NCBI GenBank assembly: GCA_020638995.1
Contig: JACKHM010000002.1
Location: 902,902-966,901, forward strand
Length of the DNA: 64,000 bases
Source: Planctomycetaceae bacterium
Lineage (GTDB): Bacteria > Planctomycetota > Planctomycetia > Pirellulales > Pirellulaceae
Direction of reading: 5' to 3'
Part shown: positions 978-16,951 of the stretch, one piece after another
Layout of the letters: every line of letters starts with the position of its first letter
Position numbering within the stretch: the stretch's first letter is position 1
Notes under the pieces: generated by a model
The model's database searches: none
The model's input: only the letters and a program-made list of their open reading frames with translations
Told to the model about the DNA's origin: nothing
Translations under genes and position numbers: made by a program

Positions 978-2579
978 ATGCAACCAACTTCCGGACAGCA
1001 GCTTCGCCGCTACTTGCTCGCGGTACTGGTACTTTCCAGTCCTGCTGCGGGCAATGGGGCCGAACTCAAGCTCGCTCCGGTAATCGATTTAAATCCGCGG
1101 CACACCGCGGCGGCTATCAATCCGACGGTCGAGCCAAAGACGCTAATTGTGGCTGCTGAGGCAATACCGCTGCCTATCGAGTCAGATCAGACGCCCACCG
1201 CCGCTCGTCCAACCTTGGTTGGAGCCAATCCGACCGTCCAATATGCGGCACCGTTTGACCCTACGAAAGTAAGTGCGTCGCAACAAACTTCTCGGGACAA
1301 TCAAATAAAAAGTGTTGCACCCGTGATTCGAGTCTACGAACCGATTCGCGAATTAAGCGTCGAAAAGCGGAACACGGCGACCGTCACTTTGGCCCAGCCG
1401 AGTCGCCTTCCCTCCAACTTGCCAGCGTCGCCCGTCACTTTGGAGCCGATTTATCGCTCGGTGTTCCTGTCAACACGAACGGATCGACTAACTCGTCGCT
1501 TTACGGCAAAACATCAGCACGATGTCCTCCCCGACCAACTTGCTTCTCGAGTGATAACGATGCTCGATGTCCAAGCGAAACATTCTTCCGAAGTGGTCAC
1601 TCATGAAACTTACGACGCGCCGAACCCCAGATCGCGGCCTACTGATAGGCAAAGCCAGGTCGCTGGTATGGTTCGAATTGCCGAGCGGAATCCTCTATCT
1701 AACGAGTCAGTATCGGACAAGTCAGTTGACGATGTTCCCGCGGCAATAGGCGGTTCGGGCCCACGACCGCCCCAACGACGTCTCTCAGCTCCGATCATCG
1801 AGCTCGCAGCGAATCCGGTTTCGCGAATTGCCTCTCCGATCCCGGACAGTCCGAAACAACCTGCCGAGGTTCCCTCCGAACCAGTATTGCGTCTCGTCGA
1901 CGAGTCTCTCGCCGAAGTCGCATCGCCCACACTCGAGCCCGCCGCAGAATCAGCTTCCGAAATACTGAAGATCCCGCCGACTAAGCCTTTGATACAGTTT
2001 GCTGATGTCGAACCGCTATTGAAGTTCGCCCAACAATCACCAGCTACGGCAGACTTGCCAGTACCGGACGCTGAGCCCGAACTTACGAAAGAACAGCTTG
2101 CCGACTTGGAAGAAATTGAGGCGTTCGACCTGGACCTCAAACCTATTCACTCGCTATCGGCTCGCACGAAGCCGGAAGCCGGCGAGTTGCCAAAGAACTA
2201 TGCGGCGGCACGCTTTGCTCGCGAAGGCGAGATCGCTCATCGCATGGGGTATAGCCGAGCGGAATTGGAAACGACGATATCCTGGGAAGCACCCGCAATC
2301 TGTCATCGACCTTTGTACTTTGAAGAAATCAATCTGGAACGCCATGGGTACAAGGTTCCGCTGGTTCAACCTGCGATCTCGGCGGCACACTTCTTCGGTC
2401 GTGTTCCGTTATTGCCGTACATGATGGTGAGCGAAGGCCCTCGCAAGTGCCAATATACACTGGGCCACTATCGACCTGGGGACTATGCACCATACTCACT
2501 GTACGTGCCCCGACTTCGGCTCGACGCCAGCGCTGCCGAGTTGGCGGTTATCGCTGGCGTGATCTTTGCCTTCCCGTAA
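978..2579 (+). CDS. Secreted Pro/Ser/Ala-rich hypothetical protein with a conserved C-terminal CHRPLYFEEINLERHGY block
   Basis: ATG at 978 gives a signal-peptide-like N-terminus (MQPTSGQQLRRYLLAVLVLSSPAAG). The middle is long and low-complexity. The last ~110 aa are Cys/His/aromatic-rich and end in a hydrophobic tail (AVIAGVIFAFP). Confidence 0.6.
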   Translation: MQPTSGQQLRRYLLAVLVLSSPAAGNGAELKLAPVIDLNPRHTAAAINPTVEPKTLIVAAEAIPLPIESDQTPTAARPTLVGANPTVQYAAPFDPTKVSASQQTSRDNQIKSVAPVIRVYEPIRELSVEKRNTATVTLAQPSRLPSNLPASPVTLEPIYRSVFLSTRTDRLTRRFTAKHQHDVLPDQLASRVITMLDVQAKHSSEVVTHETYDAPNPRSRPTDRQSQVAGMVRIAERNPLSNESVSDKSVDDVPAAIGGSGPRPPQRRLSAPIIELAANPVSRIASPIPDSPKQPAEVPSEPVLRLVDESLAEVASPTLEPAAESASEILKIPPTKPLIQFADVEPLLKFAQQSPATADLPVPDAEPELTKEQLADLEEIEAFDLDLKPIHSLSARTKPEAGELPKNYAAARFAREGEIAHRMGYSRAELETTISWEAPAICHRPLYFEEINLERHGYKVPLVQPAISAAHFFGRVPLLPYMMVSEGPRKCQYTLGHYRPGDYAPYSLYVPRLRLDASAAELAVIAGVIFAFP

Positions 2580-2594
2580 CGATCGTCGATCGGC

Positions 2595-3953
2595 TCACTT
2601 GCCAATACAGAACCGGCTGAAAATACGATCGAGAATATCATCGGTGTAGATCGCGCCAACAACGGTTCCCAATTCTTCCAGTCCAACGCGCAGCTCGCCG
2701 GCGACCAACTCCTCGCCCTGTGATTCGTAAGCGACGATTCGGGCCTGCTCCAAACTAGACCTCGCACGCCGCAAACTGTCGTGACAACGCAAAGCCGTAC
2801 TCATCACGGCATCGCAATTATCGCCTGAAACTCTCGCGTAAATTGCCTCGCGCAACTCCAGCAGCCCGAGCCCGGTAACGCTACTTGTTCGAATGGCTTC
2901 ACCTTCAAAGTGCTCCCAGGCACCAACGTCTACCTTCGTTACCACAAGCAGCCGCGGTAGATGCGCTGTGCGGGAGTACTCACGGCGTTCCCAAACATTC
3001 AGCGGGCGAGTCGCATCGACACAGTACAACACCAGGGCCGCGTCATGCTCTTTGGAACGAGTCGCCGTCTGGGCTTCAGAGGCGATTCCACCCAAACGCG
3101 TTTCCGGCTCGATACCGGCCGTGTCGATCATCGTGATAGCGCGATTCGCCAGTTTGAAGCGGCGTGTGACATAGTCGCGCGTCGTACCCGAAACATCCGA
3201 CACGATCGACGCATCATCTCCTACCATCGCATTCAGTAGGCTACTTTTACCTACATTCGGGCTGCCAACGAGCACCACGCGTGGGCTGTCGTCCGCGTCG
3301 CTCCGCGATCGCATCTGCTGCTGAACAGCGCCCACGATTTCTATCGCTGAATCGAGTCCCTGAATCAACTCATCACGTTTGATAAACTCGATGTCTTCCT
3401 CAACGAAATCCAAGCCAGCCTCAAGATGAGCCAACATGTTAAGCAAGCGTTCGCGCAACTGATGCAACGGAGTCGCCAAGCCGCCAGCCAACTGTGCTAG
3501 CGCGACATCCAAATCTCTCTGACCGGTCGCATCGATCACTCCAAGCACGGCTTCGGCTTGGGTCAAGTCAAGCCGCCCTGCCAAGAACGCGCGCATGGTG
3601 AATTCACCGGGCTGAGCTAATCTTACACCGCGCTCACAAAGCGACCGGAGGATCGCCTCCAAAACCGGAGGTGCGCCTATCGTATGCAACTCGACCGTTG
3701 GCTGACGTGTGTAACTACGTGCGCTTGGCCATGTGTAAGCGGCACACGGCAACTCACCCAGTGCCCCTCCAACGGACAGAACTCCTTCACATCTTTCTGC
3801 GAAAGCTAATTGTTGCAGTTCGACTCCACAGTTCGACCGAAATTGCCGCGCAATCATGGCGACACTGTCGGGTCCGGAGACTCGCACAATCCCACGCAGC
3901 CCTCCGCCGGGGGCCGAAGCGATCGCCGCAATCGTATCGTCTACTTGGTGCAT
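2595..3953 (-). CDS. mnmE: tRNA modification GTPase MnmE (TrmE)
   Basis: N-terminus TIAAIASAPGGGLRGIVRVSG, G1 GSPNVGKSSLLN, G3 DTAG, and the C-terminal FCIGK signature. ATG 3953 is preferred over the longer ORF start at 4022. The gene lies directly downstream of yidC. Confidence 0.93.
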   Translation of the reverse strand: MHQVDDTIAAIASAPGGGLRGIVRVSGPDSVAMIARQFRSNCGVELQQLAFAERCEGVLSVGGALGELPCAAYTWPSARSYTRQPTVELHTIGAPPVLEAILRSLCERGVRLAQPGEFTMRAFLAGRLDLTQAEAVLGVIDATGQRDLDVALAQLAGGLATPLHQLRERLLNMLAHLEAGLDFVEEDIEFIKRDELIQGLDSAIEIVGAVQQQMRSRSDADDSPRVVLVGSPNVGKSSLLNAMVGDDASIVSDVSGTTRDYVTRRFKLANRAITMIDTAGIEPETRLGGIASEAQTATRSKEHDAALVLYCVDATRPLNVWERREYSRTAHLPRLLVVTKVDVGAWEHFEGEAIRTSSVTGLGLLELREAIYARVSGDNCDAVMSTALRCHDSLRRARSSLEQARIVAYESQGEELVAGELRVGLEELGTVVGAIYTDDILDRIFSRFCIGK

Positions 3954-4059
3954 GGACGCGGGGCTTTCGCATGAGCTGCAAGTGTGAGACCGACGGTTCC
4001 TCCACGCGATCGTTGGCAGCACTCGTCCTACCTACAACGCTTGGGCTTTGTCCCAAGTG

Positions 4060-6465
4060 CTATCTAGTCTTGTTTCGCCTCTTGCGCGCCGCCTTCTTTT
4101 CCTCGACGCCGTTCGAGCCTGAAGGAGGAATCTTCTTGGGCGGCGGGTTACCGCCTCCACTGCCAGCGGAGAGACTCACTTTTGGCTTGGGAACCAACTT
4201 CCGTTCCGCGATTCCCCAAAGGCTCGAAGCGATGAAATACAAACACAATCCGCTCGCAACCTTGAAGAACAAGAAGCCCATGAACAATGTCATGTACTTC
4301 ATCATCTTGAGCTGCATCGCCGATTGCTCGTCCGTTGCTGGAGGCGTGAACAGCTTTTGATGGACAAGAAACAAACTAACCGTGATCAGCGGAAGAATGT
4401 TCAAATAAGGACCGAGCATCCCCGTCTCCGCGACGAAGAAATTCGGCATGAACGACTTCCAGTATAAAAACTGATCGGGCCCGGCCAGATTTGAGCACCA
4501 TTCAATCCCCGGAATCAGTGCCGCTTGCCGCAGTTCGATGTCAACTGCGATACAACGATAGAGCCCGAGAAAGATGGGCAATTGAAGAAACATTAGCCAG
4601 CATCCGCCAAACGGATTGTAGTTGTGCTTGCGGAACAACTCCTGCTGCGCCTTGGCTCGTTTCTCCATATCGCCTTTGTACTTTTCCGTGAGCTTTCGCA
4701 TCTCAGGAGCCAACTCTTGCATCATCGCGGCGTTCTTCGCTGCCTTGCGGCTGATCGGAAACATACAGCCACGAACAACAACCGTCAGCAGGATGATCGC
4801 GACTCCAAAGTTACCAACAACGCTGTAAAAGAAATGCAGAATTGTTTTTAGCACCTTGGAAATGGCACCGAACCAGCCGTAGTAGATCACATCGCCCAAT
4901 CCATACGGCTCAAGCACGTCGGGATCTTTGGGACCCAGGAATATGCGGAAGCTCTGCTTGTAGCTGGCATTACCCTCCAGGCTGATCGGAGCGCTATCCA
5001 ATCTAAATGTCACATCAGTAGTGCGACTGTAGCCCTTTGGTTGCTTGCTCACGTCGCCGATCGCATACGCCTCGGCACGATCGAAGACATCATAACCAGT
5101 ACCCTCCTGGCCAGTCGGAATTAGTGCCGCCGTAAAATACTGAGTGTCGACACCAAGATAATCGAGCGTTCTGCTGGGCACTTTCTCGTCGTCAGCAAAA
5201 AGCGTGATCTCTTTGTCCGTCGGCTCCTTCTTTGCAATCTTGTAGAGTTCAGGACATCCTACCAACCGACGCTCGGCCTTCGTACGGATCAAAACATCCC
5301 GCGCACCCGCGCCGTAGAACATCTTGGGATGAATCTTCGCTGAGTACCACCAACCTTCCATCGGCAAACCAGTTGGTCCGCCAAGCGAGTAAGCCAGTCG
5401 GCGCGGTGCATCGGCTGCATTGCTTAACTCCAACTCCATATCGACGTGATAGGCGAGCGGTGGATTCGGTGCAGCCGATTCTTCCACCGATGCAAGGTCT
5501 TCAGCTTTGCCAAGGCGGAATCTCTTAACGAGTTGAATCGGCTCGCCAGATTCAGTCGACTCGTCAACCATTACGCGAAACTCGAGGACACCGTCTTCGA
5601 TCTTCTCGACTTCCCAATTCCTCTTACTGGGTGAATCGATGGATACGGTTCTGACGCCGCTCTTCTCTGTCAACGACAGCAAAAAGGACAGCGGATGCGG
5701 AACCAGTTCGTCTTTTTGAAGCGGATCAGGGCGAATCAGCTCAAGCGGTCGCACGTCCAACTTGGCAGTCAACTCTAATTTGCCACTAGAGTTCGATCCC
5801 GGACGGTGGACTTGAAGCGAGATCGAATCGCCCGGCTTCTTTCCAGCCAGCACCTGTGTCAATGCCGAAGGCTCGTCAATCGGCATGCCATCCACGGCAA
5901 GTAATATGTCATCACGTTGTAATCCGCTCAGTTCGGCGGGGGTACCATGCCCGACAACATTGACTTTACACCCTAACTCGGCCCGTGGAGTCAGGGCCAG
6001 ATATCCAAAATAACCACTCTTGTCTTCCAGATTGCGATACTTGAGCTTTCCTTTAGCGTCTCGCGTCGTGAGTTCGACGCGTTCGATAGCGGCCCCCCGA
6101 TTATTGAAGGTCACTAGTAACGAGTGTTCGCTATCAGCGGCATAAGATCCGAGGGTCTCCCAACGCTGTTCGATCAAAACGGGCGTCTCGACGTCGCGAA
6201 CCTCGGAATCCGCAACAGGTTCTTCAGGCGACGGATCGGCGATTGGTTCTGATGCGTGCTCACCCAGTGAGGCCGGTTCGCCGTCCAACGCTGCGGCTGT
6301 CTCGTCGGAAGCGGGGACCTCGCCCTCTTGCTCCGCAACCGGGGGCGTCGGAAAGAACATTCGCGCCAACATGCTGTACCCGACCAGAATGCCGAGCGAC
6401 AGCCCAAGAAACAGAACGAAACGCTTTTCCACAGTCGGGAACCTTACACGCAGCAGAGCCAGCAC
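4060..6465 (-). CDS. yidC: Membrane protein insertase YidC (long form with a PDZ insertion in the periplasmic P1 domain)
   Basis: Insertase core motifs are present (HNYNPFGGCWLMFLQLPIFLGLY and MKYMTLFMGFLFFKVASGLCLYFIASSLWGI) plus a basic C-tail. An N-terminal TM is followed by a large periplasmic region. The start is GTG 6465 or GTG 6432 (VEKRFVLFL). Confidence 0.92.
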   Translation of the reverse strand: MLALLRVRFPTVEKRFVLFLGLSLGILVGYSMLARMFFPTPPVAEQEGEVPASDETAAALDGEPASLGEHASEPIADPSPEEPVADSEVRDVETPVLIEQRWETLGSYAADSEHSLLVTFNNRGAAIERVELTTRDAKGKLKYRNLEDKSGYFGYLALTPRAELGCKVNVVGHGTPAELSGLQRDDILLAVDGMPIDEPSALTQVLAGKKPGDSISLQVHRPGSNSSGKLELTAKLDVRPLELIRPDPLQKDELVPHPLSFLLSLTEKSGVRTVSIDSPSKRNWEVEKIEDGVLEFRVMVDESTESGEPIQLVKRFRLGKAEDLASVEESAAPNPPLAYHVDMELELSNAADAPRRLAYSLGGPTGLPMEGWWYSAKIHPKMFYGAGARDVLIRTKAERRLVGCPELYKIAKKEPTDKEITLFADDEKVPSRTLDYLGVDTQYFTAALIPTGQEGTGYDVFDRAEAYAIGDVSKQPKGYSRTTDVTFRLDSAPISLEGNASYKQSFRIFLGPKDPDVLEPYGLGDVIYYGWFGAISKVLKTILHFFYSVVGNFGVAIILLTVVVRGCMFPISRKAAKNAAMMQELAPEMRKLTEKYKGDMEKRAKAQQELFRKHNYNPFGGCWLMFLQLPIFLGLYRCIAVDIELRQAALIPGIEWCSNLAGPDQFLYWKSFMPNFFVAETGMLGPYLNILPLITVSLFLVHQKLFTPPATDEQSAMQLKMMKYMTLFMGFLFFKVASGLCLYFIASSLWGIAERKLVPKPKVSLSAGSGGGNPPPKKIPPSGSNGVEEKKAARKRRNKTR

Positions 6466-6578
6466 TTAGTTGCCGTCGCTACGAGGACGGCCATCAGCAG
6501 GGCAACGGTTAGCGATTGGAGCGAGTTTGTGAACTGTAATTCTCCAGCCAGGGCCGATTCTTGCAATGGGAGAACAAT

Positions 6579-7331
6579 TCACCGCCCCTCGCCCAGGCGA
6601 TCTCCCAGGAAGTTGTCAAGATCGGGCGTATCGTAGATTTTACGGGCGGTCGTGGCCCGATCATAAGCTACACGACGGAAATGTACTCGCCGCCGATCTT
6701 CAAGCACCACATAACTTGCGTTCGGGTTACCATCCCGAGGCTGCCCGACACTGCCAACATTAATCATCGTCTTGCGCCCGTTTAACGTATAGCTACCGCT
6801 GACTTCATGAGGCGAGAGAAACCGGCAGTCTTCGGTGAACACCCCAGGGACGTGCGTATGTCCCTGGAAGCAGGCTTCTGGAATTAAGCTAAAGATGCGT
6901 GCCAATTTGCGAGGGTTATAGACATCCTCCGGAAAGACATACTCGTTCAACGGATTTCGCGCCGATCCATGCACGAAGAGCAAACTCTCCTCGCGATGCT
7001 GACGAGGCAGTTCGCACAAGAATGTCCAGCGTCTTTTACGAATCTCCTGCGAATCGTCCGGAGATTCCAGTTGCCTTCTCGTCCAGAAGATTGCCCGCTC
7101 GGCACCGCTGCTAAAACCTTCGGGATCAAAAAGAGCGCCCTGGTCGTGGTTGCCAAGAACGCACAAGTCGAACTCCATCGCGCGATCGACGCAATCGCGT
7201 GGATTGGGACCATAGCCGATAATATCGCCCAAGCAGTAGATTTTCTCGACATCTTGCGAGGCGATATCCGCAAGCACCGCTTCGAGCGCTTCGAGATTAC
7301 CGTGGATATCACTGAGAATTGCGAGTTTCAC
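6579..7331 (-). CDS. Metallophosphoesterase family protein (YfcE/MJ0936-like), paralog 1
   Basis: Ordered motifs [24 protein letters not shown] and QGHTH. Confidence 0.85.
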
Positions 7332-7411
7332 AAACCGGCCTCTGATGCTCGTCTGCCCGTAACTGCGTCGCCCGCAAGTCTAGGAGCGGTCATGTGATGC
7401 GTCAAGTGTTG

Positions 7412-8164
7412 CTACCGGCCCGAGCGAAGCCGATCTCCCAACATGTTATCGAGATCTGGGATGTCATAGATCTTTTGCGCCGTCTTGTCGACGTCGTAGT
7501 CTACGCGTCGGTACGTGAGTATCGAGTCTTCAATTACGACATAACAACACCGAGGATCATTATCGCGAGGTTGTCCGACGGAGCCCACGTTAACCATAAC
7601 AGGCTCGTCACCCAATCGATATCGATAGCTAATGTCTTCAGGAGGTAAAAACTCTCGGTCAACGGTAAAAATTCCCGGGATGTGCGTATGACCTTGAAAG
7701 CAGTACTTGTTCACTCGCGAGAACAACGCATCCATCTTTCGCTGGTTGTAGACGTCTTCAGGGAAGACATACTCGTTCGTGGGCTCTCGAGGCGAACCAT
7801 GCACAAACAGGTAATCTCCCTCCGAGTGCGTTCTCGGCAACTCGCCCAGGAAGTCCCATCGACGGTTGAGCTGTGCTGGCGTACCGCTTCCCGTCTCTAA
7901 TTGCTCACGAGTCCAGTAAACCGCCTGCAAAGCAACCGGGTTGAAGCCATCGGGATCAAAAAGAGTTGCCTGATCGTGATTACCGAGTATCGTCACCTGC
8001 GAATGTCTAATAACCAGATCCAGACATTCACAGGGATTCGGCCCATACCCGACGATATCGCCAAGGCAGTATATTTCGGAGATCTCCTGAGAACGAATGT
8101 CCGCCAAAACGGCGGTCAGCGCCTCGAGATTGGCGTGTATATCGCTGATTAAAGCTCGCTTCAC
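7412..8164 (-). CDS. Metallophosphoesterase family protein, paralog 2 (tandem duplicate)
   Basis: It has the same motif set ([29 protein letters not shown]) and is colinear with the neighbouring gene over its full length. GTG 8164 lies 9 nt after a GGAGG and is preferred over TTG 8173. Confidence 0.85.
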
Positions 8165-8423
8165 GCCACACAACCTCCAACAACGGCGTTCGTTGGGCTA
8201 AGGGTCCCGTTCACGACGGGAATAGTCTCGAAGCCAGATTACCTAACTCGCGTCGTAACTCCAAACGCGACAGTGTACTAGGACGTTCCGAGACGTGCAA
8301 TATCCCGACCAGCCGTCCGATGGTGCCACACAACTGCTTCATTCTATACACTAGCATCTCGATTCGCCCACCGGTGGCCGGAATCGAACTTACCGCTCCC
8401 TGGCAACGAGGCCGCAACGACCC

Positions 8424-9110
8424 GTGCGAATTATCGCTCTCGAAACATCTGGCTCCACCGGCTCGATCGCCGCCATGGGCGATGGCCGCCTGATTGTACA
8501 AACAAGCCTCAGCACGGCGCAAAAAACCGCACAGTCGCTGGCCCCGACGTTGAAGAGCATCCTACGCGACGCGAATTGGGAACCGAACGCGGTCGAACTT
8601 GTTGCCGTCACCAGCGGGCCGGGTTCCTTCACCGGTCTCCGCGCTGGAGTCACCAGCGCCAAGGTCTTTGCCTATGCAACGGGTGCTCAGGTCTTGGCGA
8701 TCAACACGCTGGAAGTTATCGCCGCGCAAGTCGAAAACGCATCCGGCGAACTCTGGGCAGTTATGGACGCTCAACGAAAGCAAGTTTTCGCGTCAAAGTT
8801 CGCACCGAATAAATCTGGTACGCCAGAAATGCTACTACCCACGCAGATTCTCGATGATGCAGCCATGATCGGGAAACTCGCCAGCGGCGAGCTCGTAACC
8901 GGAACCGGTCTGGCTAAATTATTGCGATATGTGCCGAGCGAGGTCCGAGTCGGTCCAGAGAACTCATGGCAGCCTCAAGCCGCAACTCTCGGACGGCTTG
9001 CGTTTGCAAAGTACCGATCCGGTATGAGAAACGACGTTTGGCAACTAGCGCCCGAGTACTATCGCAAGAGCGCGGCGGAAGAGAAGTTTGACCAAGGATT
9101 GTTGAAATAG
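8424..9110 (+). CDS. tsaB: tRNA threonylcarbamoyladenosine biosynthesis protein TsaB (YeaZ)
   Basis: GTG start. N-terminus is MRIIALETSGSTGSIAA, followed by VAVTSGPGSFTGLRAGV, typical of the TsaB/YeaZ ASKHA fold. Size is ~228 aa. Confidence 0.85.
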   Translation: MRIIALETSGSTGSIAAMGDGRLIVQTSLSTAQKTAQSLAPTLKSILRDANWEPNAVELVAVTSGPGSFTGLRAGVTSAKVFAYATGAQVLAINTLEVIAAQVENASGELWAVMDAQRKQVFASKFAPNKSGTPEMLLPTQILDDAAMIGKLASGELVTGTGLAKLLRYVPSEVRVGPENSWQPQAATLGRLAFAKYRSGMRNDVWQLAPEYYRKSAAEEKFDQGLLK

Positions 9111-9153
9111 GCGCGACGCCAGGGAAATACTTCGACGCTACTAACGCTCCATC

Positions 9154-10449
9154 CTAGCTTATGGCCAGCGCTGCTTTAGCAGCATCAATTGTCTCGTCGA
9201 TATCAGCTTCGGTGTGCGCCGCCGAGACAAAGAGTGCTTCATACTGGCTGCACGGCATATAAACCCCACGATCCATCAATCCCCAAAAATATTTTCCAAA
9301 TCGCGCGGTGTCACACTTTGCAGCTACTTGCCAATTGTCCACAGGCGATTCGTTGAAAAACAGAGTCAACATGCTGCCGACACGAGTTACGGTGTGAGGA
9401 ACGCCTGCCGAGTTAGCTGCATCACCCAACCCTTCAGCCAATCGAGCACTCAGTTGCTCTAAACGAGGATATGGATTTTCATCTCGTAATGTTTGAAGTG
9501 TCGCGATACCAGCGGCTGTAGCGATCGGATTGCCGCTGAGCGTGCCAGCTTGAAACACCTGACCCGCCGGCATCACGTGATTCATGATCTCGGCTTTGCC
9601 GCCGTAGGCTCCGATCGGCATCCCTCCGCCCACGATTTTTCCGAGCGTGGTCAGATCGGGCGTGATCCCGTTCAAGGATTGCGCTCCACCGAAAGCAACT
9701 CGAAAGCCTGTCATGACCTCATCGAAGATCAGTAGAGCATTGTGTTGCGAAGTCAGTTTTCTCAAAGACGTCAGGAACTCAGGCGAGGGGATAACGGTGC
9801 CCATGTTGCCTACAATTGGCTCCAGAATGACACCAGCAATCTGCGCTCCGTAGTTCTCGAAAGCAGTCTCGACGCCAGTCACATCGTTGTAGGCTAGCAC
9901 AAGCGTGTCTTTTGTTGTTCCCGCGGTAACGCCCGGCGAATTTGGTACCCCCAACGTCGCGGCAGCACTACCCGCAGCCACCAGCAGGCTATCGACGTGT
10001 CCGTGATAGTTGCCTGCGAACTTTACGATTACATCACGGCCCGTATATCCTCGGGCCAGACGGATCGCACTCATTGTGGCCTCCGTACCGGAGTTCACGA
10101 GCCGCAGTTTTTCGATCGAAGGGACCGCATTGATGATCAACTCGGCGAGTGTGTTCTCGGCTTCCGTCGGCGCACCAAAACTAGTGCCCCGCTTGACGGC
10201 TGATTCAATGGCGTGCGTTACCTTCGGGTGTGTATGTCCCAGAATCATCGGCCCCCAGGAGCCGATGTAGTCGATGTAGCGATTGCCGTCGACGTCAAAT
10301 AGATAAGCACCTTCGCCGCGTTGCATCACGACGGGTTCGCCACCGACAGCACCAAATGCCCGAGCCGGACTGTTGACACCACCCGGCATCAATTGTTGTG
10401 AGCGTGCAAAGATTTCGTGACTCTTCTCGCGACCCATCAAAGACTCCAT
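9154..10449 (-). CDS. hemL: Glutamate-1-semialdehyde 2,1-aminomutase
   Basis: N-terminus is SQQLMPGGVNSPARAF. The PLP-lysine context is TTLGKIVGGGMP. Size is 431 aa, and the gene is adjacent to hemB. Confidence 0.95.
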   Translation of the reverse strand: MESLMGREKSHEIFARSQQLMPGGVNSPARAFGAVGGEPVVMQRGEGAYLFDVDGNRYIDYIGSWGPMILGHTHPKVTHAIESAVKRGTSFGAPTEAENTLAELIINAVPSIEKLRLVNSGTEATMSAIRLARGYTGRDVIVKFAGNYHGHVDSLLVAAGSAAATLGVPNSPGVTAGTTKDTLVLAYNDVTGVETAFENYGAQIAGVILEPIVGNMGTVIPSPEFLTSLRKLTSQHNALLIFDEVMTGFRVAFGGAQSLNGITPDLTTLGKIVGGGMPIGAYGGKAEIMNHVMPAGQVFQAGTLSGNPIATAAGIATLQTLRDENPYPRLEQLSARLAEGLGDAANSAGVPHTVTRVGSMLTLFFNESPVDNWQVAAKCDTARFGKYFWGLMDRGVYMPCSQYEALFVSAAHTEADIDETIDAAKAALAIS

Positions 10450-10464
10450 TTCTATCGATACGTG

Positions 10465-11466
10465 TCAGCCTAACCAGCGAGCGACGTCTTTCGCCCAGTA
10501 AGTCAGCAAGATGCTCGCGCCTGCGCGCGTGATCGCAGCAAGCGATTCCAACGCAACGGCCTGCTCGTCGATCCAGCCCTTTTCAGCAGCGGCCTTAACC
10601 ATGCTGAACTCACCCGAGACGTTGTACGCCGCCAACGGCACGCCGGGAAAACGCTCCGCGACAAGACGGATAATATCGAGATAGGCGAGTGCCGGCTTGA
10701 CCATGATGATGTCGGCGCCTTCGGCGAGGTCCAGTTCCACCTCACGAATCGCCTGTTCGGCGGCGGCGGCGAAATCCATCTGATAAGCCCGACGATCACC
10801 GAATTGCGGCGTACTTTCAGCAGCTTCTCGAAACGGTCCGTAAAACGCGCTCGAATACTTTGCGGCGTAACTCATAATGGGCAAGTGCTGATAGCCCTCC
10901 GCATCGAGCGCACCGCGAATCGCACCAATCATCCCATCCATCATACCGCTCGGCGCGACCATATCCGCGCCTGCCTGGGCGTGGCTGACGACCTGCTTCG
11001 CGAGCAACTCGAGTGTCGCGTCGTTATCAACGTCCGGTCGTCCTGTCTTCTCGTTAACGACACCGCAATGCCCATGATTTGTGTATTCACAAAAACAGAC
11101 ATCGGTCACAACGAGCAGATCCGGCGCTGCGGCTTTCGCGGCACGCACTCCCTGCTGAATAATTCCGTCCGCACAATAACTGTTACTTCCGAATTCGTCC
11201 TTTTCATCCGGGATGCCGAACAGAATCACTCCCCCCAGCCCGAGATCCGCTGCCTCTCGTACCTCTGCTTTTAGCAGATCGATCGACAGCTGAGCATGGC
11301 CGGGCATTGAACTGATGGGCTGTCGAATTCCGCTGCCCGTTCGTACGAATAAGGGCAGGATCAGCTTGCTAGGGTCGAGACGCACTTCGCGCACGAGGCT
11401 ACGAACGGCGGGATGATACCGCAGGCGACGAAGACGCGTAGCAGGAAAATGGGAATCGGAGTTCAT
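10465..11466 (-). CDS. hemB: Porphobilinogen synthase (delta-aminolevulinate dehydratase), Cys-rich Zn-type site
   Basis: Motifs RLRRLRYHPAVRSLVRE, the metal site DVCFCEYTNHGHCG, and the Schiff-base lysine context IIMVKPALAYLDII. ATG 11466 gives the usual ~333 aa. The longer ORF start at 11679 adds a non-homologous extension. Confidence 0.93.
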   Translation of the reverse strand: MNSDSHFPATRLRRLRYHPAVRSLVREVRLDPSKLILPLFVRTGSGIRQPISSMPGHAQLSIDLLKAEVREAADLGLGGVILFGIPDEKDEFGSNSYCADGIIQQGVRAAKAAAPDLLVVTDVCFCEYTNHGHCGVVNEKTGRPDVDNDATLELLAKQVVSHAQAGADMVAPSGMMDGMIGAIRGALDAEGYQHLPIMSYAAKYSSAFYGPFREAAESTPQFGDRRAYQMDFAAAAEQAIREVELDLAEGADIIMVKPALAYLDIIRLVAERFPGVPLAAYNVSGEFSMVKAAAEKGWIDEQAVALESLAAITRAGASILLTYWAKDVARWLG

Positions 11467-11838
11467 TGCTCCGTCATAAACCTCAACCAATTGAAAATTG
11501 AAGACCGTGAGTTCGACCGACGGAAAATCGGCTGGCGAAGTCGAGTTTCCAATCCAAACATTTCCACCTCGTCGAGTATAGTCCACAACAGTGCGTATCG
11601 GAACGCGGCTCACGGTCGAGTTGAACTCCTGCGTCTCACCCTCCGGCGACTTGTCGTAGACTCGTCTGTTGGGTGACAAAGGTGCGGATTACTCAACAAG
11701 CCGCGGAACAAGACGTCGCGAGACGCGTTCAACCTTTATTCGGCGAGGTAGGCAGGACGCCTCGTCGGGCAATCTACGAGTCGACGGCTGCGGCGTCCGG
11801 CCTACTTCATACAACCACTGGACAAGCCAACTCGCCGT

Positions 11839-12744
11839 CTACAGCTTCTTCGCTTTCTCCAATTCCTCAGCGAACTTCTTTTTGTAGTAATCCGCCTTGG
11901 CGTTCTCGATGGCCTTCTCGTAGTGCTTCACCGCTAATTTCCCCTCGCCGGTCGCGAGAAACACTTCGCCCAAGTCCGCGTGCCAGCGATCAATGGACCG
12001 TTCAGCTCGGGCGTCGGCTCCCAATTCCTCGGCCTTCTTTGCGGCTGCCAGCGCCTTGTCCTTTTGGCCTGCCTTCAGCCACGCTCCGGCGGCTTCCTTG
12101 TAGTCCCAGGCGGTTTCGTCTTTGTGCATCGGAGCGATCTTCTCGAACAATTCGGCACTTTCGACATACTGGTGCGACAACCGATAGGCGAAGGCGAGTT
12201 GCCCGGCGAGGGCGAAATCGAAATCTATGCCTTCCGCCTTGTTCAGGTGGATCAGTCCCTGGAAATACTTGCACTGCTGCGCATAATCCCGATCCAGCAA
12301 ACCGTGGTAGTTGGACATGATGTATAACGCCGTGCGATCTTTGTCGTTTTTCCGTACTCGGTCCTCGTAACGCTTGCGAGCCGCTTCGACTTGTCCTTTC
12401 TTTTGGACCGTTCCCAGCAGCGAGCGGCAAGTCAACGACGCCATCGAGGGATAGGGCGCGTGTTCGACGACGAACTCAGCCGATTCATACATCTTCGGAA
12501 AATCGCTGCCTTCGGCGTACACGACCATCAGCGTCTGATGAATGCGGCACTTGTCGCTGTCCGATTCGGCCAGCTTGGCCGCCGCCTCCAGCGGACCGCG
12601 GCTCTCGGCCAGTTTTCCCGAGTTATACAACGTGGCTCCCTTCGCCATCGCTTCACGGTAACTCGAGAAACCAGCCTCCTGAGCCTGGGCCATCGAGGCG
12701 ACAACGGTCAAAAGTAGCAAGCAGATGGTAAACGCGTGTCGCAT
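11839..12744 (-). CDS. Secreted TPR-repeat protein
   Basis: ATG 12744 gives the signal peptide MRHAFTICLLLLTVVASMAQAQEA. The body has Ala/Tyr/Lys-rich helical repeats resembling TPR (for example LGEVFLATGEGKLAVKHYEKAIE). Confidence 0.7.
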   Translation of the reverse strand: MRHAFTICLLLLTVVASMAQAQEAGFSSYREAMAKGATLYNSGKLAESRGPLEAAAKLAESDSDKCRIHQTLMVVYAEGSDFPKMYESAEFVVEHAPYPSMASLTCRSLLGTVQKKGQVEAARKRYEDRVRKNDKDRTALYIMSNYHGLLDRDYAQQCKYFQGLIHLNKAEGIDFDFALAGQLAFAYRLSHQYVESAELFEKIAPMHKDETAWDYKEAAGAWLKAGQKDKALAAAKKAEELGADARAERSIDRWHADLGEVFLATGEGKLAVKHYEKAIENAKADYYKKKFAEELEKAKKL

Positions 12745-12958: not shown

Positions 12959-13387
12959 TCAATCCGGATTTTCAAACTGATCTGTCCCTGTCCGCTTCTT
13001 CCTATCGGCCTCCTCCATGAGGTGGCACATCAGGGGCTGCATCTCCTCAAAAAGCGGCTGATAGTACTTCTCCATTCGCTCAACAGCTTCAGGCCTTCCA
13101 AGTTGGAGGAGTTGGTCGAGGTAATTGGCTCGTTCAATATCCCAAAAACATCGGTGACGCAATCCATTCGGTTCACCAATCAAGGTTGGAATGTTGTGCA
13201 AGAATTGCACCTCCACTCGCGCCCATGGTAATTCGTCACGCCGTTGAGCGTAACGAATTGTCAAGAAACCAACTTGAAGAAGGCGAAGGTAGAGTTGATC
13301 GAGAGCATTCACCAAACGTCCTTTCCATTCGTCAATAAACAAATGCGGGAAGATGAGTAATCCCAGCTCGCAATGCCATTTCCACAC
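12959..13387 (-). CDS. Putative immunity protein for the upstream ParB-like toxin module
   Basis: This is a 142-aa cytoplasmic-looking ORF with a GTG start that overlaps the last 56 nt of the toxin ORF. The position is classic for a polymorphic-toxin immunity gene. I recognised no family motif. GC looks lower than its surroundings by eye. Confidence 0.5.
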   Translation of the reverse strand: MWKWHCELGLLIFPHLFIDEWKGRLVNALDQLYLRLLQVGFLTIRYAQRRDELPWARVEVQFLHNIPTLIGEPNGLRHRCFWDIERANYLDQLLQLGRPEAVERMEKYYQPLFEEMQPLMCHLMEEADRKKRTGTDQFENPD

Positions 13388-14330
13388 GAGTCATTCCGTC
13401 CATGATCACCATCCGGCCACTCATGTTTTCTACTACGATTGGCGTGTATTCTGCCCAGTTAAATGCACCGTAATGTTCCAGTTTCGCCGCATCAGCAACA
13501 GTTCGCTGCGCACTTGGGTGTGGACTGAGATTACGAATGTCAATCGTTCTAGGACTCGCATTGTGCACCAGCATACCAAGTGACGAGACCTGATACACGT
13601 GCTGGCCTTGGACTTCCAGGTTGTAGACGCGGATCGGTTCGGCGATTTTCTCGACGCGGGCGATTTTTCGCACACCATCGTCGCACAGAACCGTGCTGCC
13701 TGCGGTCAGTTCGTGGGCTTCGACGAAGTCCCGATGCTCGACCGACCACGTGATGTGATTCGGCGTACAACGGATCGGATCGTCCTGGCCGTCGAGGTAC
13801 ATACAAATCGTTTCGGGGGCGATGTGTGTGAACGTGCCCAGCACAATCCGGCCTTCGCCGGGACGAACTTCGGGGCAGGGCCAGATGGAAACGACTTCAG
13901 CGGGCTCGTCGATCCCGAGTTCCGGGACGACCAGCATCATTGACGATCCCTCGTGAGCGAGATGTTCGTTGACCCAAGTCACTGGTCTTAGGAGGACCAC
14001 CTCGTGCTGCGAAGTCTTCAGGGTGATCTTTCGCCACGTTCGTGGGTTGACGTCGAAGCTGAGCGATTCGTCGAGTTGTTCCGTGGGGTTGATGGCGAAG
14101 GCCACGCGCTCGCCGACTTGGATTTGCTCGATCGACTTCGTGTAGGCTGGGTCGCGACCCAGCCTACTGCTGGCTTGCGCTTCGCTCACGCGTTCGGGAC
14201 TCAAATGACGGTAGCCGAAACCACCCGCGATCAGCAGCCAGATCGCTAGCCAAGCTACGCCGGCGCGTCGCTTCCAAGGGGGGGAGTCAGAGGCAGATTG
14301 GAGACGGTGGTTGAATCGAAAGCGTGTCAT
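13332..14330 (-). CDS. TM-anchored Hint (C-terminal part) plus ParB/Srx-like toxin module protein
   Basis: ATG 14330 lies 9 nt after a GAAGG. The N-terminal region is basic and followed by a TM helix (WKRRAGVAWLAIWLLIAGGFGY). Hint blocks are SIEQIQVGERV, CTPNH (TxxH) and VYNLEVQGQHVYQVSSLGMLVHN. The last ~73 aa (IDIRNLSPHP...TPIVVEN..MVIMDGMTRVEMALRAGITHLPAFVY) resemble a ParB N-terminal/Srx fold. The ORF stays open upstream to 14564. Confidence 0.75.
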   Translation of the reverse strand: MTRFRFNHRLQSASDSPPWKRRAGVAWLAIWLLIAGGFGYRHLSPERVSEAQASSRLGRDPAYTKSIEQIQVGERVAFAINPTEQLDESLSFDVNPRTWRKITLKTSQHEVVLLRPVTWVNEHLAHEGSSMMLVVPELGIDEPAEVVSIWPCPEVRPGEGRIVLGTFTHIAPETICMYLDGQDDPIRCTPNHITWSVEHRDFVEAHELTAGSTVLCDDGVRKIARVEKIAEPIRVYNLEVQGQHVYQVSSLGMLVHNASPRTIDIRNLSPHPSAQRTVADAAKLEHYGAFNWAEYTPIVVENMSGRMVIMDGMTRVEMALRAGITHLPAFVY

Positions 14331-14452
14331 ATTGTTAAACCTTCGTTGATAGTTGGCTGGTCGTGCTGTAGCTGAAGTCGCCAAGACTTCAGAGGCGAAT
14401 CGATGGGTGTCCGAACTCTTGGCGAGTTCGGCTAAGGGCAAATCTCCATTCG

Positions 14453-16951
14453 TTAACAAAGTTCGCGGTCGTAAGCCGCGAAGATATCGTCGACGTTGTT
14501 TTCGTGCGGACGTTTCTTCTTGCGGCGGCTGAGCGAATAGCCAGCGACCGCCACCGGGATACAAGCGGCGGCAATAGCAAGATCCGCCGCGCTGCCGGTG
14601 CCTTCTAATGATTCAAATGTGTCGTCCATGCGCACCTCGGTGCCAGCGACGAAGCAGTTAGACATGCCAAGTGCCATCGAGCCGGCGATGATCGCCACCG
14701 TTCCGGCACCTTTACTGACTGCGTGAGCGACATCGGTCTCCGGCCTGACGAGGTTGCGACTCCAATCGACAACCGGTACATCGGGTACGACGTCGAATCG
14801 ATCGACTTCATCGACGAGGCTGTTTACGACTCCGATCGCCATATCGGTGGCAGCGTTGAGAACATTTGCCGCCCCTTGATTCGCGCCGGCGTTAAACTCG
14901 TTGAAAATGACCAAGCCCCATCCCAGCAGAGAATCGGGGTTTGAACTACTGCCGCCGGTATCTTCGCCCCAAAAGCTGTCCATTGCGAGGGCACTCGTTG
15001 CAGATCCCAACGCCATTTCGAAGGCCGCGTAGGCATCGTCTCCCGCAGCCGTCGCGTTTGACTGTGCCGTCGCGATTGAACTTTCGAAATTCGACACCGC
15101 GACTGCAATCGCTCCCTCGGCCATGAGGTTCGAGATGGTGATGGTGTTTTCCATCATGGCACGAGCGGCGACTTCGGTAGCTTCCCAGATCCCGATCGCG
15201 ACGGCGACCGCGGCTTCGTGTGCGTCGTAAGCATCCGATTCGGCAGCTAGCCAATCGTCCTCCGCCGCCTGAACCGCCAGATCATACACGGCTTGGGCGT
15301 CGGCTTCGGCAAGATCAAATGCAGCGTCGGCATCGGCCACTGCCAGGTCATGGGCCGCCTTGGCAGCCGTTTCTTCGCCGGAATAGGCATTGTCGGCGGT
15401 TAACACCGCCGCTGCATAGGTTGCGTTAGCCCCGTCGATCGCAGCTTGCCATACGTCGCTGGCGTCCCGCTCGGCCTGGTCATAGACCGCAGAAGCCGTC
15501 GTCTCGGCAGCGGTCCTGATTGCGGACGCGGCTTGTTCGTCGGCGTTCCAAGCTGCATCGGCAGCGTTGGCCGCAATTTGGAACACCGCATCGGTCGTGG
15601 TCGCTGCCGTATTCCAATTTGCCTCTGCCGTATCAGCCAACCCTTGCCAAGTGGCCGCGGCGTCGATTTCGACCTGTGTTGCTATGTCGCTGGCATCGGC
15701 CATATCCGACTCGTATTGGTCCCAGGCATCCTGCTCGCTCGAAGTCCAAGTCTCATAAGCACCCTCTTCTACCCACGAGAATATGGCGGCAGCGGTGGTA
15801 ACTGCCGTGTTGTAGTTATCTGCGGCAAGTTGCATGGCCGATTCGTATTGCGTGTACATGGCTGTCCAACACGCATCATCGTCTATATCGCAGCTGCCCA
15901 TCGCTGCTCCCGCGTCGGTGACAGCTTGATTGTAGTCGTCCTGGGCCGTATTGACGTCATCTACGTAAGTCTGATACGCGGGATTCACGATGCCGTTATA
16001 GACCCCAGTCGCCAAGTCCACAGCACCGTTATAAGTGTTCGCTGCGTCCGTAGCCGAGTTGTTGAAGGTGTTCTGGGCCGCGGTAATATCATTGCTGTAC
16101 CCCAAATCGGCCGCGTCCATCGCCGTGCGGTAATCACCGTCCGCCGAGTTCATCGCAGCGTTGTAGATGCCGCCGGCCGCATCCATGTCAGACACATACC
16201 GGGCGTCAGCGGTATCCATCGTCGAGTTATAAGCGTCGTTCGCGATAGCCATCGCAGCGTTGTAGATGTCCGCGGCGCCGTTCATCGCGGTCTCGTAAGC
16301 ACCGTCCGCAGTTTCGACCGCGGCGTCGTAGATGTCGCCAGCCGCGGTGACCGCTGCATCGTGAATCGAGCCCGCGGTTGTCATGCGCGAATTGTACGTC
16401 CCAGCCGCATTATCCAAGGCCGCGACATAGATGTCGTTGGCTGTCGACATTGTGGTGTCGTAAGCGGTGCCCGCATCCGATACGGCGGTGTTATAAGCCC
16501 CGTTCGCCATGGTCAAGGCATCGTTGTAGGTCGTAGCCGCCGAATCGTACGCGAGTTCCAAGACCGCGTTCGCGCTGTCGATCGCACCTTCGTATACCGA
16601 GATTGCGCCCTCAATCGCGGCATCGCGAATATCGGTGATCGACGTAATCGTCATGGCAAAGCCATCGGTCGCGGCGGTAATATCGCTTTGAAGCTGGTTG
16701 CCGATTGAACTGAGCGAGTTGATCAATGTATTCAAGGCAGCCACGTCAGAAGCTGACGTCGAAGAAGCCGAAATGTCGCTGGTCACACAGCTAAGAAAGG
16801 CCGACACGTCGGATTCGCTGGCGTTCATCTCCGGTGCAACGCAATCCGCGGCCAGCAGTCGCCGATCCTCCAGCGACTCGAAGCTTAGCCGTTTCCGATA
16901 GTGTTTCGGTCGTCGCTTGGACTTTGCGGACCCCGAGCGCAGTTTCATCAT
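14453..16951 (-). CDS. Large exported Ala/Asp/Thr-rich hendecad-repeat protein ending in the first Hint strand (CFVAGTEV) and a C-terminal TM anchor
   Basis: An ATGATG start at 16951/16948 follows a G7 purine tract. The N-terminus (KSKRRPKHYRKRLSFESLEDRRLLAA) is typical of planctomycete exported giants. About 40 eleven-residue repeats follow. The C-terminus reads SNCFVAGTEVRMDD, then the TM helix LAIAAACIPVAVAGYSL, then RRKKKR. Confidence 0.8.
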   Translation of the reverse strand: MMKLRSGSAKSKRRPKHYRKRLSFESLEDRRLLAADCVAPEMNASESDVSAFLSCVTSDISASSTSASDVAALNTLINSLSSIGNQLQSDITAATDGFAMTITSITDIRDAAIEGAISVYEGAIDSANAVLELAYDSAATTYNDALTMANGAYNTAVSDAGTAYDTTMSTANDIYVAALDNAAGTYNSRMTTAGSIHDAAVTAAGDIYDAAVETADGAYETAMNGAADIYNAAMAIANDAYNSTMDTADARYVSDMDAAGGIYNAAMNSADGDYRTAMDAADLGYSNDITAAQNTFNNSATDAANTYNGAVDLATGVYNGIVNPAYQTYVDDVNTAQDDYNQAVTDAGAAMGSCDIDDDACWTAMYTQYESAMQLAADNYNTAVTTAAAIFSWVEEGAYETWTSSEQDAWDQYESDMADASDIATQVEIDAAATWQGLADTAEANWNTAATTTDAVFQIAANAADAAWNADEQAASAIRTAAETTASAVYDQAERDASDVWQAAIDGANATYAAAVLTADNAYSGEETAAKAAHDLAVADADAAFDLAEADAQAVYDLAVQAAEDDWLAAESDAYDAHEAAVAVAIGIWEATEVAARAMMENTITISNLMAEGAIAVAVSNFESSIATAQSNATAAGDDAYAAFEMALGSATSALAMDSFWGEDTGGSSSNPDSLLGWGLVIFNEFNAGANQGAANVLNAATDMAIGVVNSLVDEVDRFDVVPDVPVVDWSRNLVRPETDVAHAVSKGAGTVAIIAGSMALGMSNCFVAGTEVRMDDTFESLEGTGSAADLAIAAACIPVAVAGYSLSRRKKKRPHENNVDDIFAAYDRELC
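15185..16530 (-). repeat. Degenerate 33-nt (11-codon) periodic coding repeat, about 40 units in two phase-shifted blocks
   Basis: An aromatic residue (Y/W/F, occasionally H) recurs every 11 aa at ORF residues 151-349 (19 units). It recurs again at 389-598 (20 units, with I488 and A433 as exceptions). The two blocks are offset by +7 residues. The similarity is periodic at protein level, not a high-identity DNA repeat. Confidence 0.85.

Follow-up and report, generated by a model that had tools for sequence, protein, structure and literature searches.

A Hint domain with a predicted membrane hairpin, divided between two genes in a planctomycete polymorphic-toxin locus

We analysed a stretch of 64,000 nucleotides (nt) from a Planctomycetaceae bacterium (assembly GCA_020638995.1, contig JACKHM010000002.1, positions 902,902 to 966,901), hereafter the window, in which a Hint domain of the PT-HINT family, an intein-like autopeptidase, is distributed over two adjacent genes on the minus strand. 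Gene 1 (14453-16951/16978, minus strand) is the open reading frame (ORF) of an exported scaffold, about 832 amino acids (aa) long when counted from MMKLRS, and ends in the first Hint strand, a transmembrane (TM) helix, TM1, and a putatively cytoplasmic tail. Gene 2 (13332-14330, minus strand) encodes 332 aa, comprising a basic N-terminus, a second helix (TM2), the remaining portion of the PT-HINT domain and a toxin tail, and directly downstream of the toxin lies a candidate immunity gene (12959-13387, minus strand). This arrangement is a real, selected and naturally split Hint domain bearing a membrane hairpin, and the division probably represents a two-part toxin-processing device rather than a sequencing error, because related bacteria keep the same division. 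The complete reading, in which a membrane-hairpin Hint domain was split by gene fission within a polymorphic-toxin locus and operates as a functional two-part device, we regard as moderately probable.

The C-terminal order of gene 1 is ...GMSN-CFVAGTEVRMDD-TFESLEGTGSA-ADLAIAAACIPVAVAGYSL-SRRKKKRPHENNVDDIFAAYDRELC-stop. The first strand with its nucleophile Cys, CFVAGTEVRMDD (14621-14656, minus strand; checked against the sequence), forms an N-fragment of 12 aa, and the first-pass annotation of this DNA had correctly read CFVAGTEV here, at 14656-14633, with SN before it and RMDD after it. Six-frame translation of the 64-kb window yields one occurrence of the first-strand motif C[FLIVM]x.[GD]T.[VIL], at the end of the ORF directly upstream of the Hint gene. 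When the strand and gene 2 are joined and compared with the starts of Hint profiles, the junction matches positions 1-27 of PF05203 weakly (E 0.014). The Hint domain does have its N-terminal nucleophile Cys1, in SN-CFVAGTEV, although the product of the neighbouring gene carries it. TM1, ADLAIAAACIPVAVAGYSL (14531-14587, minus strand; KD19 hydropathy 1.71), has the features of a stop-transfer helix, with six Lys or Arg among the 15 residues that follow it and one before it. The tail SRRKKKRPHENNVDDIFAAYDRELC (14456-14530, minus strand) then runs to the stop codon at 14453-14455, and the gene end proposed earlier, with TM helix, basic tail and stop, is borne out: the helix occupies 14587-14531, SRRKKKRPHENN... 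comes next, and the stop codon is TAA (14455-14453). Aligned with three related loci (L001, L003 and L072; related loci and proteins carry our L and P labels throughout), the tail keeps a basic cluster followed by an acidic and aromatic motif, DDxFAxYxxE.

Gene 2 is ordered MTRFRFNHRLQSASDSPPWKRR-AGVAWLAIWLLIAGGFGY-...-TKSIEQIQVGERV...TPNH...LVHN-ASPRT... After the ATG come WKRR and the helix TM2, AGVAWLAIWLLIAGGFGY, just as the first reading had them (14211-14276, minus strand; KD19 hydropathy 1.34); with four Lys or Arg before the helix and two after it, TM2 resembles a signal anchor of N-in/C-out orientation. Because hydropathy and charges fit a stop-transfer helix and a signal anchor, the gene 1 tail and the gene 2 N-terminus are both predicted to be cytoplasmic, and the same features agree with the earlier suggestion that, by the positive-inside rule, both Hint pieces face the extracytoplasmic side. 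The rest of the Hint domain, TKSIEQIQVGERV...TPNH...LVHN (13560-14141, minus strand), was recognised by a match to PF07591 and by AlphaFold and Foldseek. The PF07591 match (E 2.2e-8; 34.9 bits against a cut-off of 27.7) covers profile positions 38-137 only, so that the N-terminal part carrying the nucleophile Cys is unmatched in gene 2. TPNH, the TxxH of block B, lies at 13766-13755 and is invariant among gene 2 homologues, and LVHN ends at 13560, both as annotated; of the annotated SIEQIQVGERV at 14103-14132, IEQIQVGERV occupies 14132-14103 and the Ser lies 3 nt upstream of the start it had been given. The Hint domain is thus not a continuous polypeptide, strand 1 being separated from the remainder by the stop at 14453 and the new ATG at 14330.

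Two further features of gene 2 lie within or near its Hint portion. The second strand and block B are separated by an insert of about 90 residues (residues 78-165, ~13836-14099) that has no counterpart in the Pfam PT-HINT profile; its model is confident and rich in beta structure, and NPxE..D, W.KI.L, LLRP..W and PE.GI are conserved within it. Some 13 residues past TM2, residues 42-54 (~14169-14207) hold a conserved (E)VQA-S motif, with the form SEAQASS in the window and, among relatives, GEVQASI. The motif is a possible signal-peptidase I site, and cleavage there would strip off TM2 once the protein had been exported.

The C-terminal 75 aa of gene 2 (13335-13559, minus strand) are a polymorphic toxin tail, since the tails of homologues diverge directly after HN. 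Among 33 close homologues, most of 300-340 aa and sharing the N-terminus, the helix and TKPIEQIQVGERV, divergence sets in abruptly after LVHN. The same 75-aa tail, ...DGMTRVEMALRAGITHLPAFVY, recurs behind different Hint backbones in P0018 and in L071 (4407-4634). A similar tail, that of P0018, gave a weak, sub-threshold match to ParB_N (E 0.044) and no other profile match, and the tail may represent either a ParB-like toxin of very small size or a toxin family that is new. The candidate immunity gene has a homologue behind the same toxin tail in L071 (4656-4988, 53% identity). As a mechanically defined ORF it overlaps the end of gene 2 by 56 nt; because alignment with its homologue in L071 begins only at residue 26 (VNALDQLY...), the start is probably a GTG near 13312, some 20 nt after the gene 2 stop. 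No Pfam family matched the candidate immunity protein, and the immunity-type neighbours found in relatives are SMI1_KNR4, ComJ and DUF6984. The locus accordingly has the conserved N-terminal part, the hypervariable C-terminal toxin and the downstream immunity-type gene of a polymorphic-toxin system.

Upstream of the strand, gene 1 opens with a planctomycete cell-surface motif at the N-terminus, which is followed by a long helical repeat region rich in Ala, Asp and Tyr. The motif, LSFESLEDRRLLAADC (16844-16897, minus strand), matches Planc_extracel (PF07595; 27.1 bits against a cut-off of 25.5, E 3e-6), described as a planctomycete-specific cell-surface signal peptide (PMC8567305). The centre of the gene, between 14700 and 16800, encodes several hundred residues of repeats of about 11 residues (for example TADGAYETAMN GAADIYNAAMA IANDAYNSTMD), which matched no Pfam family and are probably an alpha-helical stalk. 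A scan of gene 1 for tandem repeats in the DNA found no array across this region, the sole repeat being a 16-nt unit in 2.1 copies at the tail-coding end (14492-14525).

Between the two genes lies a spacer of 122 nt (14331-14452, minus strand) with two perfect 8-bp hairpins, CCGAACTC...GAGTTCGG and CTGAAGTC...GACTTCAG, and a Shine-Dalgarno (SD)-like GAAGG (14340-14344). The annotated GAAGG-N9-ATG start was verified, with GAAGG at 14344-14340, nine intervening nt and the ATG at 14330, and an SD-like AGG(A) was found 8-11 nt upstream of the ATG in every gene-2-type cassette examined. The spacer folds better than its shuffles (z -2.67). A different conserved element, GTACGAYG...CTTCCSAGSCCGTCG, stands right after the gene 1 stop in L001, L003 and L072. 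Such a spacer element may have a role in mRNA processing or stability, or in the expression ratio of the two halves; a scan for terminators and promoters between gene 1 and gene 2 gave counts at or below chance.

Many relatives carry the whole arrangement in one ORF, in the order Cys-strand, TM1, RRRR, loop, TM2, second strand and rest of Hint. Fused forms of this kind are found in L007, as a Cadherin/RHS protein of 2523 aa, in L005, which has two cassettes adjoining sheath genes of a type VI secretion system (T6SS), and in L006/P0022, L013, L015, L023, L027 and L067; in the representative library fused proteins reach 6218 aa. The distance from first to second strand in fused forms is 142-257 residues, and tail, spacer and gene 2 N-terminus of the window together approximate the shorter fused loops in length. 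More distant matches (P0029, P0032 and L028) are ordinary PT-HINT domains without a hairpin. To judge from these sequences, the locus belongs to a subfamily in which a predicted two-helix membrane hairpin is inserted between the first and second Hint strands. Since so many relatives hold the arrangement in a single ORF, the simplest history of the window would be that a gene for a hairpin-bearing Hint domain underwent fission within the stretch encoding the cytoplasmic loop.

The continuous relatives also bear on the possibility that the window really contains one continuous gene with a hairpin-bearing Hint domain, broken by an assembly or sequencing frameshift. The first-pass annotation had raised this as one of three readings and had noted that both frames are open across 14456-14564; they are, the frame of gene 2 reaching upstream to 14564 and overlapping gene 1. 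The distribution of the split argues otherwise. We fetched the contigs of gene 2 homologues and scanned one genome per species, and the two-gene junction was recovered in L003/L004/L009, a Planctomycetota metagenome-assembled genome (MAG) with an intact gene 1 of 867 aa, in L001/L002/L008, in L072, in L016, where the locus is frameshifted, and in L037, from a distant Phycisphaeraceae MAG about 32% identical in the Hint domain. In L004 the intact 867-aa orthologue of gene 1 is alike at its N- and C-termini (MKLR...FEQLEDRRLLAVDC start), and in L037 the first strand, TM1, PRRRNKRR and a stop end an intact 3239-aa ORF with an unrelated scaffold. The recurring order is first strand, TM1, basic cluster, stop, separate ATG, basic stretch and TM2. 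Spacers measure 122, 83, 100 and 95 nt among the split loci, the frame offsets differ, and in L003 the gene 2 frame is closed upstream of its ATG, so that neither a conserved frameshift nor readthrough nor a sequencing error can explain the pattern. Stop and restart thus recur in independent assemblies from different projects, with different spacers and frames; the gene 1 tail is conserved as protein up to the stop, and gene 2 has a conserved SD-like site and ATG. Alignment of orthologous loci, proposed earlier as a check, accordingly finds stop, gap and ATG conserved in independent assemblies of four other lineages. The hairpin within the Hint domain, the other half of that earlier reading, is real and is continuous in many relatives; an indel artefact it is not, and we consider a frameshift error scarcely credible.

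Genes ending in a first strand and TM1 are known here only from loci fetched via gene 2. A homologue search with the C-terminal 171 aa of gene 1 gave no match, and one with the full protein returned a single match, P0034, because low-complexity candidates flooded the search.

Both halves of the split domain are under selection. We compared the proportions of nonsynonymous (pN) and synonymous (pS) differences among the window, L001, L003 and L072, a set in which synonymous sites are saturated and amino-acid change is low. The first strand, CFVAGTEVxMD(D/E), shows pS 0.91 and pN 0.03 (pN/pS 0.04), compared with a pN/pS of 0.29 for TM1 (pS 0.70, pN 0.21), 0.27 for the cytoplasmic tail of gene 1 (pS 0.78, pN 0.21) and 0.27 for TM2 (pS 0.68, pN 0.18). 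The 22 residues preceding TM2 are nearly free to vary (pS 0.53, pN 0.42, pN/pS 0.80), and the spacer DNA of the split lineages is only 38-58% identical. These values indicate very strong purifying selection on the first strand in the split lineages; as the most constrained segment in the region, it does not behave like a strand that the split has made useless. Together with the recurrence of the split, the varying spacers and frames and the SD-like sites, this selection supports the first of the earlier readings, a genuine split with a very short N-fragment. The third, a decaying locus, does not hold for the window, where both genes are intact and constrained, decay being seen instead in several close relatives, which are rearranged or frameshifted.

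The constraint must be set against a different account of the locus, in which the division is a by-product of cassette shuffling, gene 2 serving as an orphan recombination reservoir and gene 1 being a truncated toxin gene, with no joint work between them. Orphan gene-2-type cassettes without an adjacent first-strand gene do occur in L007 (two), L014, L018, L012, L021 and L075; L001 holds a truncated copy followed by a full copy, and in the syntenic L071 first strand, TM1 and TM2 have given way to another C-terminal module. The isolated strand nevertheless has its pS of 0.91 and pN of 0.03, with TM1 and tail also constrained, which is unlike a relic or a stretch kept for DNA homology. Intact pairs are present in at least two species, with an independent one in Phycisphaerae, and stand-alone cassettes have sharply defined starts with SD-like sites. 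We therefore judge shuffling without joint function unlikely.

L071 (1818-6020), the closest syntenic relative, is flanked by FtsK and TruB on one side and by TPR and ALAD on the other. In place of first strand, TM1, spacer and TM2 it has a different C-terminal module and a small ORF: its scaffold ends in a ...GVGWYPRFH...FLRGWNIFL module, also found in P0034, which is followed by an ORF of 119 aa. It keeps a start-less remnant of gene 2 with the same toxin/immunity pair, plus a second, frameshifted cassette, and shows a clear toxin displacement at a conserved DWSRGxLVHESDAVHG junction. A SRELC-RDPAY junction in this locus was considered as a deletion fusing the gene 1 tail to gene 2 and was rejected as coincidental, because DNA homology starts only at about codon 56 of gene 2. 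The TPR protein was likewise rejected as a conserved accessory, being common only to close syntenic relatives.

The extent of the family was gauged by an exhaustive profile-free search, which returned 4564 representatives at E<=1e-3 and 348 at E<=1e-30; 170 sequences were examined. The stand-alone form, with helix and second strand and without a first strand, accounts for 122 of the 170 (median 388 aa; second strand at median residue 65.5), and 116 of these 122 start with Met. The fused form is represented by 12-14 sequences and the canonical form by two, so that stand-alone TM2-Hint-toxin genes are about ten times commoner than fused ones. Terminal HN is universal among relatives (165/165). 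The residue after it is A in 49, G in 37, S in 35, T in 12, N in 8, V in 6 and C in one; S, T or C therefore occupies the +1 position in 48 of 165 relatives (29%), and in the window +1 is Ala.

The abundance of stand-alone cassettes lends something to the idea that gene 2 acts alone, TM2 serving as a signal anchor or cleavable signal peptide and the strand-less Hint domain freeing the toxin by Asn cyclisation. Some engineered S1 C-inteins perform C-cleavage without trans-splicing (PMC3620165), stand-alone cassettes outnumber fused forms roughly tenfold, and (E)VQA-S after TM2 could be a signal-peptidase site. This account leaves unexplained why CFVAGTEVxMD(D/E), close to the membrane at the end of gene 1, is so extremely conserved, and a toxin released into the periplasm would have no delivery module. 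The BIL (bacterial intein-like) fold, moreover, is covered less fully without the docked strand than with it (TM-score 0.65 versus 0.85). We think it decidedly unlikely that gene 2 works by itself.

These scores come from two structure models. When the last 87 residues of gene 1 were joined to gene 2 with the hairpin kept, AlphaFold placed the Hint core at pLDDT >90 and the TM2 helix at 74-95, and Foldseek matched the model to mini-inteins, BIL domains and the VidaL intein, with a TM-score of 0.65 to 2lwy. In a hairpin-deleted construct, with the gene 1 strand joined directly to PAYTKSIEQ..., pTM was 0.71, the Hint core again exceeded pLDDT 90 and the strand reached 84-89; the top Foldseek match was the Clostridium thermocellum BIL domain 2lwy (TM-score 0.85, 22% identity). 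The models show that the predicted strand is compatible with the Hint fold, which is compatibility and no demonstration of trans-assembly.

Several observations weigh against a functional two-part device. In the hairpin-kept AlphaFold model the gene 1 part falls below pLDDT 50, and the confident docking was obtained with a covalently joined construct and a shallow alignment. Since some S1-type C-inteins cleave their C-terminus without an N-fragment, gene 2 might not need gene 1. Most stand-alone cassettes are orphans downstream of fused toxin genes (L007, L075), and a minority follow a gene ending in first strand and TM1. Gene 1 has no classical signal peptide, so that its export rests on the PF07595 motif only. 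Among close relatives, frameshifts affect L016 and gene 1 of L001, L073 is without the first strand, and L071 has lost first strand, TM1 and TM2; with relatives so rearranged or decayed, the system is evolutionarily unstable. This volatility (L071, L073, L016 and L001) keeps alive both the shuffling by-product and the self-sufficient gene 2, but neither explains the constraint on the isolated strand.

The membrane hairpin might alternatively act in the target cell, its helices entering the inner membrane of the victim and translocating the toxin, as proposed for prePAAR T6SS effectors. TM segments in toxins are known, in the form of a 2-TM domain N-terminal to PAAR (PMC3113570), and the fused cassettes of L005 adjoin T6SS sheath genes. 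There, two fused hairpin-Hint cassettes (1425-6478 and 6413-11986) lie directly beside VipA, VipB, ImpA_N and VasE, one of them with a NucA/NucB DNase and a ComJ-type immunity gene. HINT has been described as never associated with T6SS toxins (Zhang et al. 2012, PMC3482391), and L005 shows adjacency only. The charges in the window follow the positive-inside rule for insertion from the cytoplasm of the producer, the split form places the helices on separate proteins with stop-transfer and signal-anchor features, and a conserved tail of cytoplasmic type follows TM1. Action of the hairpin in the target cell therefore appears very improbable.

Under the two-part reading that we favour, the products of gene 1 and gene 2 would both become anchored in the cytoplasmic membrane, their Hint pieces lying on its outer side, and TM1 and TM2 would pair as they do in the fused hairpin, docking the 12-residue strand on the rest of the domain. 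In the completed Hint domain an N-S acyl shift at Cys1 would detach the scaffold from TM1, and Asn cyclisation at HN would detach the toxin. The outcome would be either two cleavage products or a scaffold ligated to the toxin, with Hint and hairpin remaining in the membrane. A more far-reaching version, which we put forward as doubtful, is a swap of toxins at the protein level: the 12-residue N-fragment borne by the scaffold would be a membrane-tethered acceptor for any co-expressed TM2-Hint-toxin cassette, ligated in the manner of BIL domains. The cassette would dock by helix pairing, and trans-splicing would proceed without a +1 nucleophile, leaving Hint and both anchors in the membrane and producing a junction peptide predicted to read ...GMSN-ASPRT.... 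If this were true, orphan cassettes would be active alternative warheads and not silent spare parts.

The system shares features with several that are already described. Like PT-HINT domains (PF07591; PMC3113570, PMC3482391), that of the window is immediately followed by a variable toxin and then by an immunity gene; Cys1, TxxH and terminal HN, the catalytic residues, are all present, and in fused relatives the domain ends RHS and other giant scaffolds. PT-HINT has been described as one continuous soluble domain, whereas this subfamily has a predicted 2-TM hairpin and cytoplasmic loop, which set the first two strands some 140-260 aa apart in fused forms, and the subfamily insert of about 90 aa after the second strand; in the window the domain is also divided between two genes. 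In the available full texts HINT figures only as an uninterrupted releasing peptidase, situated between the pre-toxin domains and the toxin, and a 2-TM domain is placed only N-terminal to PAAR (PMC3113570, PMC3482391). The PAAR-linked 2-TM domain of T6SS Rhs effectors is likewise a pair of TM helices inside a polymorphic toxin, but it is N-terminal, does not lie inside the releasing peptidase and is not homologous to the hairpin described here. Our full-text literature search, which was incomplete in coverage, found no membrane hairpin inside a Hint domain and no two-gene PT-HINT, in agreement with the first-pass annotation, which knew of no such Hint.

BIL domains can be cleaved at either end, and those of A-type can ligate their flanks without a +1 nucleophile. 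The window resembles the A-type BIL 2lwy in having Cys1 and terminal HN, no obligatory +1 nucleophile and no endonuclease insert; BIL domains are soluble and single-chain, whereas this Hint domain bears a predicted membrane hairpin and is split. We know of no BIL domain that is membrane-embedded or naturally split. The position of the break is that of engineered S1 split inteins, of which N-fragments of 10-12 aa can trans-splice (PMC3620165), and of the natural short-N intein VidaL (PDB 6vgv), the N-fragment of the window being the 12-aa CFVAGTEVRMDD; as in split inteins, the two fragments are encoded by separate genes, adjacent here. Split inteins need Cys, Ser or Thr at +1, where the window has Ala, and they rejoin the halves of one protein, whereas the flanks in the window are a surface scaffold and an exchangeable toxin. 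Association would use two TM helices in the window and not fragment affinity alone, and its fragments end in predicted cytoplasmic extensions, in contrast to the free termini of split inteins. Finally, the locus recalls the orphan cassettes of Rhs and CdiA systems, with arrays of C-terminal toxin modules and immunity genes downstream of a main gene and older modules displaced by new ones (L001, L007, L071). It differs in that its cassettes have a defined start (SD-like site, Met, basic stretch and TM helix), set at a constant distance from the Hint core, and in that the main gene of the window ends soon after the missing strand that it supplies.

To our knowledge, naturally split Hint domains have so far been essentially split inteins that restore housekeeping proteins. 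A break at the S1 position, with TM helices joining the fragments in the setting of a warfare toxin, would widen the known roles of Hint domains, and would give intein engineering a naturally occurring design for ligating or releasing proteins on a membrane template. As to polymorphic toxins, stand-alone TM-Hint-toxin genes form more than 100 clusters in Planctomycetota, and such orphan cassettes are possibly expressed components and not only recombination stock. In annotation, two-gene pairs of this kind should not be "repaired" as frameshifted pseudogenes.

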